A stretch of 64,000 nucleotides of DNA from Candidatus Aenigmatarchaeota archaeon (GCA_038997165.1 JAWBAK010000001.1:338337-402336), one strand, 5' to 3'. Shown: positions 36,353-59,460, counted from the first letter of the stretch. Numbers and translations are program-made. Notes: a model not told the origin generated them from the sequence alone.

Positions 36353-36501
36353 GCCGGGGTCGCCTAGTGGACATGGCGGCGGACTTGAGTGATAGATTGG
36401 CGTGAAACTGATAAGAGATATAAAAAATGATGTGGGTGTCGAAATAAGAAAGAAATCCGCTGGGCTCTAAGCCCGCGTGGGTTCGAATCCCACCCCCGGC
36501 G
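36353..36501 (+). tRNA. tRNA-Ser (TGA) with 65-nt intron at 37/38 (36390-36454)
   Basis: GCGGA-CT-TGA-G|intron|A-TCCGC; long variable arm; G73. Confidence 0.92.
36389..36454 (+). ncRNA. Intron-encoded box C/D-like sRNA
   Basis: GTGATAG-12nt-CTGA-15nt-ATGATGT-12nt-AAGA. Confidence 0.6.
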
Positions 36502-38406: not shown

Positions 38407-38689
38407 GGTGGGGGCACGCTTAGGGTCGATAGATTAACCCACTACGATTTACCCAACCCTCGGCTAATAAGCATATCCGTGAACGCAGATATTATAGCTT
38501 ATGGCTGCTTCCTTTCGGACCTCACCAGGTTCGCTATAATATCTGCCCCACGGATATGCTTATTTCATAGCCTAAGGTTGGATCGTAGTGAGTTAATCTA
38601 CCTTCCCTAAGCTACGGCGGCCGTTATGGACCGTTTGCCCTGGCATTTTGCCAGAGGGGAGGCCCAGCCCCCCGCCGGAGGCCCCCACC
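38407..38689 (-). ncRNA. ffs: Signal recognition particle RNA
   Basis: Helix-8 motif AGGUCC-GAAA-GGAAGCAGC; 9-bp terminal helix; Alu-like 5' domain; long helix 5. Confidence 0.9.
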
Positions 38690-53747: not shown

Positions 53748-53874
53748 TGCGGGGGGTGGGATTTGAACCCACGACGGCTCTACGCCATCGGGTTTCTTAT
53801 CATTTATTCAAAGCTTAAGATTTTATATCTTTATCTTAAGCCCGACGCCCTTGGCCAGGCTAGGCGACCCCCGC
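53748..53874 (-). tRNA. tRNA-Leu (TAA) with 41-nt intron (53794-53834)
   Basis: TCGGG-CT-TAA-G|intron|A-CCCGA; long variable arm; CUUA/UAAG splice helix. Confidence 0.92.
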
Positions 53875-56515: not shown

Positions 56516-56564
56516 TCAGAAGTACTCCTTTTCATCATTATTCAGATGCGGCGGCATTCTTCAT
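56516..56564 (-). ncRNA. Box C/D sRNA
   Basis: ATGAAGA-ATGCCGCCGCAT-CTGA-ATA-ATGATGA-AAAGGAGTACTT-CTGA. Confidence 0.88.
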
Positions 56565-57942: not shown

Positions 57943-58082
57943 GCCGGGGTCGCCTAGCGGAAATGGCGCCGGCCTCGAGTTAAATGATAAGCTCTGGGGT
58001 AGCTGAAAGATAATGATGATTTTGTTATAAGAGAAAGCCGGTGGGCTCTAAGCCCGCGTGGGTTCAAATCCCACCCCCGGCG
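57943..58082 (+). tRNA. tRNA-Ser (CGA) with 56-nt intron (57980-58035)
   Basis: CCGGC-CT-CGA-G|intron|A-GCCGG; long variable arm. Confidence 0.92.
57984..58032 (+). ncRNA. Intron-encoded box C/D sRNA
   Basis: ATGATAA-GCTCTGGGGTAG-CTGA-AAGATA-ATGATGA-TTTTGTTAT-AAGA. Confidence 0.75.
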
Positions 58083-59272: not shown

Positions 59273-59322
59273 ATAAATTTATAAAAAAGATTAAAGTTAA
59301 ATTCATCTTTATACAATATTGT

Positions 59323-59421
59323 TGGGGCCGCTGGGATTTGAACCCAGGTTAACGGGTTTCCTCATTTTATCGGTGCTCCATTTCTGGAGCCCGCCGTCCT
59401 ACCTGGCTAGACTACGGCCCC
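59323..59421 (-). tRNA. tRNA-Trp (CCA) with 26-nt intron (59358-59383)
   Basis: GCGGG-CT-CCA-G|intron|A-CCCGT. Confidence 0.92.
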
Positions 59422-59460
59422 AATAATAAAAAATTTTTATATTTTTCGATATTAATTTAT

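Follow-up and report, generated by a model that had tools for sequence, protein, structure and literature searches.

A short tRNA-Trp intron of an Aenigmatarchaeota archaeon as a candidate one-motif box C/D guide for its own wobble base

The 26-nt intron of a tRNA-Trp gene in a Candidatus Aenigmatarchaeota genome is probably a natural one-motif box C/D guide, or "halfmer", for 2'-O-methylation of nucleotide 34 (Nm34), which would act in cis on its own pre-tRNA before splicing. The gene lies near one end of a 64,000-nt stretch of DNA (GCA_038997165.1, JAWBAK010000001.1:338337-402336), referred to here as the window. The original prediction was that the intron is a reduced guide with a single K-loop. 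This reading is supported by the conserved spacing of guide and box in relatives, by covariation between D' position 1 and C' position 6 (D'1:C'6) and by the presence of the enzyme genes. The device is restricted neither to this genome nor to tRNA-Trp. It is found across the whole sampled phylum and, in this genome, in seven tRNAs. When it is compared with the canonical box C/D family two defining features are missing, namely the two sets of boxes and the 10-bp duplex, and the other features tested are alike. From these sequence comparisons we infer that the proteins bind the intron, that methylation takes place, that it occurs in cis and that it comes before splicing.

The gene occupies window positions 59323-59421 on the minus strand, as do all the tRNA-Trp features given below. 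It matches the Rfam tRNA model with 56.3 bits and a 30-nt insertion in the anticodon loop. ARAGORN calls it tRNA-Trp(cca) with one 26-nt intron, at the canonical 37/38 position, when introns are allowed (option -i), and misses the gene when they are not. The minus strand reads GCGGG (nucleotides 27-31) and CUCCAG (32-37), then the intron AAA-UGGAGC-A-CCGA-UAAA-AUGAGGA-A, then A38 and CCCGU (39-43). This reading places the exon/intron junctions so that the intron spans exactly 59358-59383. The location had been predicted correctly, and the proposed division of the intron into segments agrees to the base. The 5' exon (nucleotides 1-37) is at 59384-59421, the 5' splice site is between 59384 and 59383, and the 3' exon (nucleotides 38-73) is at 59323-59357.

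The guide UGGAGC (59375-59380) is the exact reverse complement of G31-A36 (GCUCCA, 59385-59390). As originally proposed, this pairing closes a GAAA tetraloop, which consists of G37 and the first three intron bases (59381-59384). A lone base, N1 (59374; A here and U in most relatives), separates the guide from the D'-like box CCGA (59370-59373), which makes the guide N7-N2 upstream of D'. With the A beside CCGA counted as 1, N5 is the G at 59378. It faces C34 (59387), the predicted methylation site, as expected from the claim that the fifth base upstream of the box would do so. Next come the loop of the K-loop, UAAA (59366-59369), and the C'-like box AUGAGGA (59359-59365). G3 and A4 of the C' box would make tandem sheared pairs with G3 and A4 of the D' box, and G5-C2 and G6-C1 (C':D') would be Watson-Crick pairs in the window copy. 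In this copy both boxes are off consensus and N1:C'7 is A.A. How readily would 26 letters of this composition produce such an arrangement? When they are shuffled 200,000 times, the 6-mer complement arises in 603 cases, the complement plus NNGA at the right spacing in 51 and the whole layout, in which a UGA follows at a distance of 2-9 nt, in 3.

The intron contains one D-type box, one C-type box and one guide within 26 nt. Inspection by eye of the Trp introns of the window gene and its relatives revealed no terminal C or D box. The window intron has no second guide for U39, and nucleotide 39 of this tRNA is a C. The guide:target duplex is 6 bp in the window gene and 5-6 bp in relatives, where a canonical guide would have a 12-nt spacer and a duplex of about 10 bp. 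A permissive-threshold Rfam search of 59280-59460 returned the tRNA model and weak chance matches, with no snoRNA or sRNA family among them. Two further candidate elements were considered and rejected. One is a second K-turn built from C35-A36-G37-A (a "CAGA" box), which was dismissed because intron base 1 is not conserved. The other is a CUGA that follows the anticodon stem in some relatives and could be a D box within the 3' exon; it is absent from the window gene.

What might such a device do? In the unspliced transcript UGGAGC would pair with anticodon-loop nucleotides 31-36. Directly 3' of this duplex CCGA and AUGAGGA would fold as a K-loop, with tandem sheared G.A pairs and two Watson-Crick pairs, which would recruit L7Ae and then Nop5-fibrillarin. 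Fibrillarin would 2'-O-methylate the wobble base C34 according to the five-nucleotide rule. The guide hairpin would then open, allowing C32-C35 to pair with GAGG near the 3' end of the intron, and the resulting bulge-helix-bulge would be cut by the splicing endonuclease. Methylation would thus come earlier than splicing.

The order of events is suggested by the two folds. Guide pairing and the splicing helix both need nucleotides 32-35 and are therefore mutually exclusive, which is why methylation is placed ahead of splicing. Over the anticodon arm and intron together, the guide hairpin has a predicted energy of -11.0 kcal/mol, or -13.1 kcal/mol with the two Watson-Crick pairs of the K-loop stem, and the bulge-helix-bulge fold -2.9 kcal/mol. 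The hairpin is also present in the minimum-energy fold of the whole pre-tRNA. Archaeal bulge-helix-bulge introns have their splice sites in two 3-nt bulges on either side of a 4-bp helix. Such a fold can be drawn here, with C32-G, U33.G, C34xA and C35-G in the central helix, bulges A36-G37-A and A-A-A38, and an outer helix reduced to a single A-U. The intron strand of the central helix is GAGG (59360-59363), which belongs to the C' box as well. Part of the C' conservation could therefore stem from splicing alone in short introns, where the two overlap. In the longer introns of relatives the C' box (AUGAU...) lies apart from the splicing strand (GAAG-AA/A or GGUG-AU/A, with the slash at the splice site), which indicates two separate functions that have been compressed together in the 26-nt intron. 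DPANN splicing endonucleases with relaxed specificity have been described (PMC5829648). A further observation concerns the base opposite nucleotide 34 in the splicing helix. In the Trp, Leu(CAA) and Met introns it is an A, giving a conserved C.A mismatch, and in the U34 tRNAs it is likewise an A, which pairs with U34.

The relatives were sampled in several ways. The 99-nt gene gave full-length matches in a BLAST comparison with 60 relatives. Thirty loci were returned; in 26 of them ARAGORN identified a tRNA-Trp whose intron is 22-41 nt long, and the other four are T-arm matches. A covariance model (R1) was then built from the cloverleaf only, with the intron unstructured. The alignment behind it misaligns the C' box of long introns and served the cloverleaf model only. 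R1 was searched against 118 genomes of the order and a 151-genome sample of the phylum, and the best matches were fetched for part of both samples. The sampling spans 29 family codes, 19 of which are represented among the recovered tRNA-Trp genes. In 15 further genomes the fetched match was another tRNA and is therefore uninformative on Trp.

A strict parser read 82 genomes, of which 81 fit the pattern ".GGA.. + 1 nt + ..GA". In the exception, G003, the guide is one base shorter and its distance to CUGA is unchanged. A tolerant parser read 116 genomes, 89 of them within the order and 27 outside it, and returned guide, D' box and UGA in 106 and guide plus D' box only in 5. The remaining five were flagged as lacking the motif. 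Four of these have mis-set 3' stems and the motif is present by eye (G035, G060, G037 and G101), and in the fifth, G201, the parser had picked a second gene with a CCA anticodon and the other Trp copy has the motif. That second gene (L174) is tRNA-like, with a 37-nt intron that contains neither guide nor boxes; the normal Trp copy is L153. Addition of G033 and G049, which were parsed only by the strict version, brings the total to 118 genomes, of which 91 belong to the same order and 27 to others. The guide, one nucleotide and NNGA are present in 118/118 tRNA-Trp genes, and a downstream UGA box lies in the same intron in 113 of them. Loss of the guide-to-box spacing in relatives had been named at the outset as the finding that would count against a guide, and the spacing is kept throughout. 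Because the parser demands both GA and UGA, their invariance is not independent evidence, and the evidence lies instead in how often parsing succeeds. Since the relatives share ancestry, these counts are not independent samples either.

Box pairing was compared in 71 distinct K-loop introns of the order. Their guides are UGGAGC (50 introns), UGGAGA (16), UGGAGG (3) and UGGAAC (2), and the D' boxes of relatives include CUGA, UUGA, AUGA, UCGA and others. The 98%-identical relative L007 has CUGA where the window has CCGA. The D'1:C'6 pair is Watson-Crick in 64 of the 71 introns and uses three types to be so (C-G in 24, U-A in 35 and A-U in 5), with G.U in six more and one mismatch. None of 20,000 shuffles reached 64 Watson-Crick pairs, and sliding the partners by one position gives far worse results. 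At D'2:C'5 the most frequent combination is U.U (32), which is the canonical-box type, followed by U-A (21), U.G (7), C-G (5) and G-C (1), with 5 mismatches. The window boxes CCGA and AUGAGGA are the C-G, C-G variant of this scheme. Elsewhere the introns vary freely in length and sequence, with 2-15 nt ahead of the guide and 0-8 nt in the loop of the K-loop. On the strength of the D'1:C'6 covariation and of the likeness to the C/D sRNAs of the same genome, CCGA-UAAA-AUGAGGA qualifies as a predicted K-loop of C-type and D-type boxes.

Two further observations are independent of the parser. In other orders the short loop between D' and C' is swapped for a G+C hairpin (GAUGCC-UUCG-GCAUC, GCCGC-GCAA-GCGGC or CCAGG...CCUGG), and the K-loop thereby becomes a classical K-turn with a canonical stem. 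The other observation is that the C' box can move to another intron. In five genes the canonical Trp intron does not extend beyond the D box: L090 (G043), L116 (G075), L165 (G090), L104 (G114) and L115 (G021). All five carry xUGAxxx in a second intron upstream of the anticodon stem, in the form AUGAUUA, AUGAUAC, AUGAUAA, AUGAAGA or AUGAGAA. In at least four of them the bases 3-4 nt before GA complement those after the D box (CUUC/GAAG, UAUCA/UGAUA, UCU/AGA and UUCC/GGAA). With stem I, bulge and tandem G.A, the predicted K-turn is complete in four of the five genes and is put together from two introns. A UGA in the upstream intron is present in 5/5 genes without a C' box vs 0/6 two-intron genes that keep the K-loop. 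ARAGORN misses or mislabels the two-intron Trp genes of relatives.

A separate feature is seen in 16 of the 71 Trp introns (families f5 and f2; for example L093, L078 and L083). Here the loop is UUCCAAG, UUUCCAG or CUCCAGG, a copy of the anticodon loop. Such a copy could pair with the guide, perhaps acting as a decoy that leaves the anticodon available to the splicing fold.

The same device is present in other tRNAs of the genome. Among its 15 intron-bearing tRNAs, seven carry it, with the guides UGGAGC (Trp), UUGAGC (Leu-CAA), UUAAGC (Leu-UAA), CAAAGC (Gln-UUG), AUGAGC (Met-CAU), GAAAGG (Glu-UUC) and AAAAGC (Lys-UUU). The match was judged by exact-complement tests, and each guide is the exact complement of nucleotides 31-36 of its own tRNA, always with N5 opposite nucleotide 34. 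The common plan is the guide, one base, UUGA, CUGA or CCGA, 3-5 nt and AUGAnnn or GUGAnnn. For the seven introns the full layout arises in 3 to 62 of 200,000 shuffles each. The spacing that puts nucleotide 34 at N5 is the same in 118/118 Trp genes and in 7/7 device-bearing tRNAs of the genome. The device is absent from the other eight intron-bearing tRNAs, which are Cys, Tyr, Asp, Thr(UGU), Ile(UAU), two Ser with long introns and one doubtful call.

One of the seven, tRNA-Leu(UAA), is also in the window (53748-53874, minus strand). Its intron is 41 nt (53794-53834), and within it are the guide UUAAGC (53813-53818), the D' box UUGA (53808-53811) and the C' box AUGAUAA (53797-53803), all on the minus strand, with U34 at 53838 opposite N5. 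The remaining five (Leu-CAA, Gln-UUG, Met-CAU, Glu-UUC and Lys-UUU) are elsewhere in the genome (G000), at C1:136196-136313, C1:245970-246075, C1:422074-422176, C1:475885-475987 and C1:549078-549185. The Leu(CAA) pattern was also searched for in the phylum sample. It is present in 54 of the 151 genomes (6/7 in family f1, 26/31 in f2 and 0/10 in f5), with 61 matches vs 11 for the pattern read backwards. Of 30 such loci that were fetched, six are unrelated. The other 24 are tRNA-Leu genes that show the layout, the UGA box being absent in one.

Does the genome encode the proteins that such a guide would use? Fibrillarin and Nop5, in adjacent genes, and L7Ae are all encoded, with Pfam matches over the cut-off, in an assembly of 651,930 bases in four contigs with a G+C content of about 24.5%. 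There is also a second and weaker L7Ae-family match (50.5 bits; G000 C1:486636-486890, plus strand) with one in-frame TGA. Fibrillarin is present in 151/151 sampled genomes and, because every sampled genome has it, is useless as a negative control. Canonical guides are present too. A strict four-box search returned three C/D sRNAs, all with 12-nt spacers; the reversed genome gave none. One is in the window (56516-56564, minus strand; ATGAAGA-12-CTGA-ATA-ATGATGA-12-CTGA) and the others are at G000 C1:263694 (plus strand) and C2:18029 (minus strand). Their K-loops, CTGA-AAA-ATGATGA, CTGA-ATA-ATGATGA and TTGA-TTTA-ATGATAA, have the form and size of that in the Trp intron. Three sequencing runs each contain at least half of the sampled words around the locus. 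All three are labelled hot springs metagenome, and no RNA run is among those that contain the locus.

Other explanations for these observations have to be weighed. One is that the K-loop binds L7Ae only, and that the hairpin masks the anticodon as a folding or quality-control device which holds a non-splicing fold, with no methylation. The large difference in stability between the guide hairpin and the splicing fold would suit such a role, as would the overlap of the short-intron K-loop with a strand of the splicing helix. The length of the duplex also counts against a guide and for this alternative; at 5-6 bp vs the 10 bp of active canonical RNPs it is shorter than any known to support methylation. 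However, mere L7Ae binding leaves unexplained why the distance between guide and D' box is fixed at one base, with nucleotide 34 at N5, in 118/118 Trp genes and in seven tRNAs. It also leaves unexplained why the targets match known Nm34 sites. We consider it unlikely. Another is that the likeness to boxes is a chance product of an A+U-rich intron and that the conserved parts serve splice-site recognition only. A loose scan of the genome (6-mer with U in third place, its complement, NNGA and UGA) does give 143 matches vs 111 for a non-complementary control, showing how common the loose pattern is at 24.5% G+C. The scan is uninformative because the genome is A+T-rich, and shuffles of single introns were used instead. 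Moreover, the 3' end RGAA/A is common to introns without a guide. Yet those shuffles rarely yield the layout, D'1:C'6 uses three Watson-Crick pair types, the C' box relocates to another intron and a hairpin takes the place of the loop in other orders. In addition, a canonical bulge-helix-bulge pairs the anticodon with the 3' end of the intron and not with a 5' segment. Chance is hardly a credible explanation.

A different question is whether the guide acts on its own transcript. Perhaps the excised and possibly circularised intron, or another pre-tRNA, methylates a different tRNA-Trp molecule. There is a precedent, in that reviews report action in trans for the long Haloferax volcanii intron, and a guide that has been excised would no longer compete with the splicing fold. 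However, a duplex of six base pairs between two molecules is weak, and would be weaker still if the habitat is hot, as the metagenome labels hint. Within one molecule the hairpin is the ground state. The split form of the K-turn, too, exists only in the unspliced precursor. Action in trans therefore seems quite improbable, and a guide that acts in cis before splicing is the reading preferred here.

How does this proposed cis guide relate to known systems? Archaeal tRNA-Trp introns, with a median length of 65 nt, are described in reviews as harbouring a nested box C/D RNA for Cm34 and Um39 in Haloferax and other Euryarchaeota (PMC4090602, PMC11408192). A Methanobrevibacter tRNA-Trp fetched for comparison has a 75-nt intron with UGAAGAA-12-CUGA-11-GUGAUGA-UCAAUUGGAGUA-CUGA (C-12-D'-11-C'-12-D), in which C34 is at N5 of the D guide with a possible 10-bp duplex. 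Both sources bear out the original statement that euryarchaeal Trp introns are long, four-box guides for these two sites. The window intron resembles them (Pyrococcus sR50, Haloferax volcanii) in its 37/38 position, the segment antisense to the anticodon loop, a D-type box, C34 at N5, the predicted use of L7Ae, Nop5 and fibrillarin, and guide pairing that competes with the splicing fold. The difference is one of reduction. The euryarchaeal intron has four boxes and two guides, whereas here there are one K-loop and one guide of 5-6 bp in 26 nt, with neither a terminal C/D box nor the U39 guide.

A second point of comparison is the engineered halfmer. With archaeal proteins in vitro, halfmer C/D RNAs that have the C'/D' motif alone direct methylation to a specific site; human halfmers whose spacers are short are inactive in vitro; and whether halfmers exist in cells has been posed as a question (Yang et al., 2020, PMC7229835). 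In one study a single-motif RNP is active but unspecific, and the pseudo-symmetry of natural guides is called "absolutely conserved" (PMC1635284). Another paper describes the active canonical RNP as having a 10-bp duplex and natural guides as defined by two sets of boxes (Wang et al., 2022, PMC9670817). The Trp intron shares with engineered halfmers (PMC7229835, PMC9670817) a single C/D or C'/D' motif and one open-ended guide. However, the engineered halfmers were made in the laboratory with spacers of about 12 nt, act on separate substrates and are site-specific with Sulfolobus proteins in vitro, whereas the intron device is natural and joined to its substrate, and its duplex is much shorter. 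Canonical archaeal C/D sRNAs, including the three in this genome, have the same type and size of K-loop (CTGA or TTGA, 3-4 nt, ATGATGA or ATGATAA) and follow the same N5 rule. Unlike the intron device they act in trans and are built of two motifs with two 12-nt spacers.

The targets are familiar from other archaea. Trans-acting Pyrococcus sRNAs are listed in a review as targeting the wobble position of Trp, Met, Leu(CAA) and Leu(UAA) tRNAs (PMC7994747), and sR47 targets tRNA-Leu(CAA) (PMC5558902). These four are among the seven device targets. The Pyrococcus sRNAs are free-standing, four-box RNAs, whereas here the guide is inside the intron of its target, and Gln(UUG), Lys(UUU) and Glu(UUC) are targets in addition. 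Derivatives of Cm34 and Um34 are documented in archaeal tRNAs (PMC7668247). A precedent among DPANN archaea is Nanoarchaeum equitans, in which a C/D-like RNA resides in the 66-nt intron of tRNA-Met, its other three introns being "considerably shorter" (Randau, 2012, PMC3491384). This too is a non-Trp tRNA intron with C/D elements; the published account presents the N. equitans RNA as a stable sRNA that has a C box and a D box. In the full-text literature that was covered, which includes few subscription journals, no guide with a single motif was found to be described for short tRNA introns or for DPANN archaea.

Box C/D guides are defined by two sets of boxes, and natural ones are described as always bipartite, against which stands a conserved natural family of candidate guides with one motif, fused to their substrates. 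A wider proposal has a somewhat better than even chance of being right. It holds that short introns persist as natural halfmer guides, with at least seven cis devices per genome writing Nm34, K-turns made from two introns in some lineages and a checkpoint ahead of splicing. If this is true, Aenigmatarchaeota, and perhaps DPANN archaea more widely, keep short tRNA introns as halfmer guides, and the tRNAs that receive Nm34 are those for Met and Trp together with the readers of two-codon NNR boxes. The checkpoint would arise because the guide hairpin competes with the splicing fold. The introns would also give the first natural answer to the question about halfmer C/D RNAs in cells, and would mean that an intramolecular duplex of 5-6 bp suffices for fibrillarin.

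Several consequences would follow from such a device. It would provide a concrete selective reason for retaining tRNA introns in very small genomes, and a case in which wobble modification is linked to splicing by built-in design. The two-intron genes would show that a single protein-binding RNA motif can be put together naturally from two introns. The system is minimal and should be easy to reconstitute from an RNA of about 100 nt and three proteins, as a test of the base pairs and architecture that fibrillarin needs. Finally, there is a warning for annotation, since ARAGORN misnames several device-bearing tRNAs. It gives "Stop tta" for Gln(UUG) and Lys(UUU) and "Ser cga" for Met(CAU); Thr(UGU) and Ile(UAU), which are without the device, both become "Ser tga".

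Some other RNAs of the genome deserve a brief mention. Three tRNAs have long introns, Ser(UGA) with 65 nt, Ser(CGA) with 56 nt and Tyr with 70 nt, that contain several UGAU/CUGA-type boxes with spacers of about 12 nt. The loci are at window positions 36353-36501 and 57943-58082, both on the plus strand, and at G000 C2:11128-11269. The three introns are possibly fuller C/D RNAs, whose guides have no match in the anticodon loop. The window also contains an archaeal SRP RNA, at 38408-38688 on the minus strand (Rfam, 115.5 bits).
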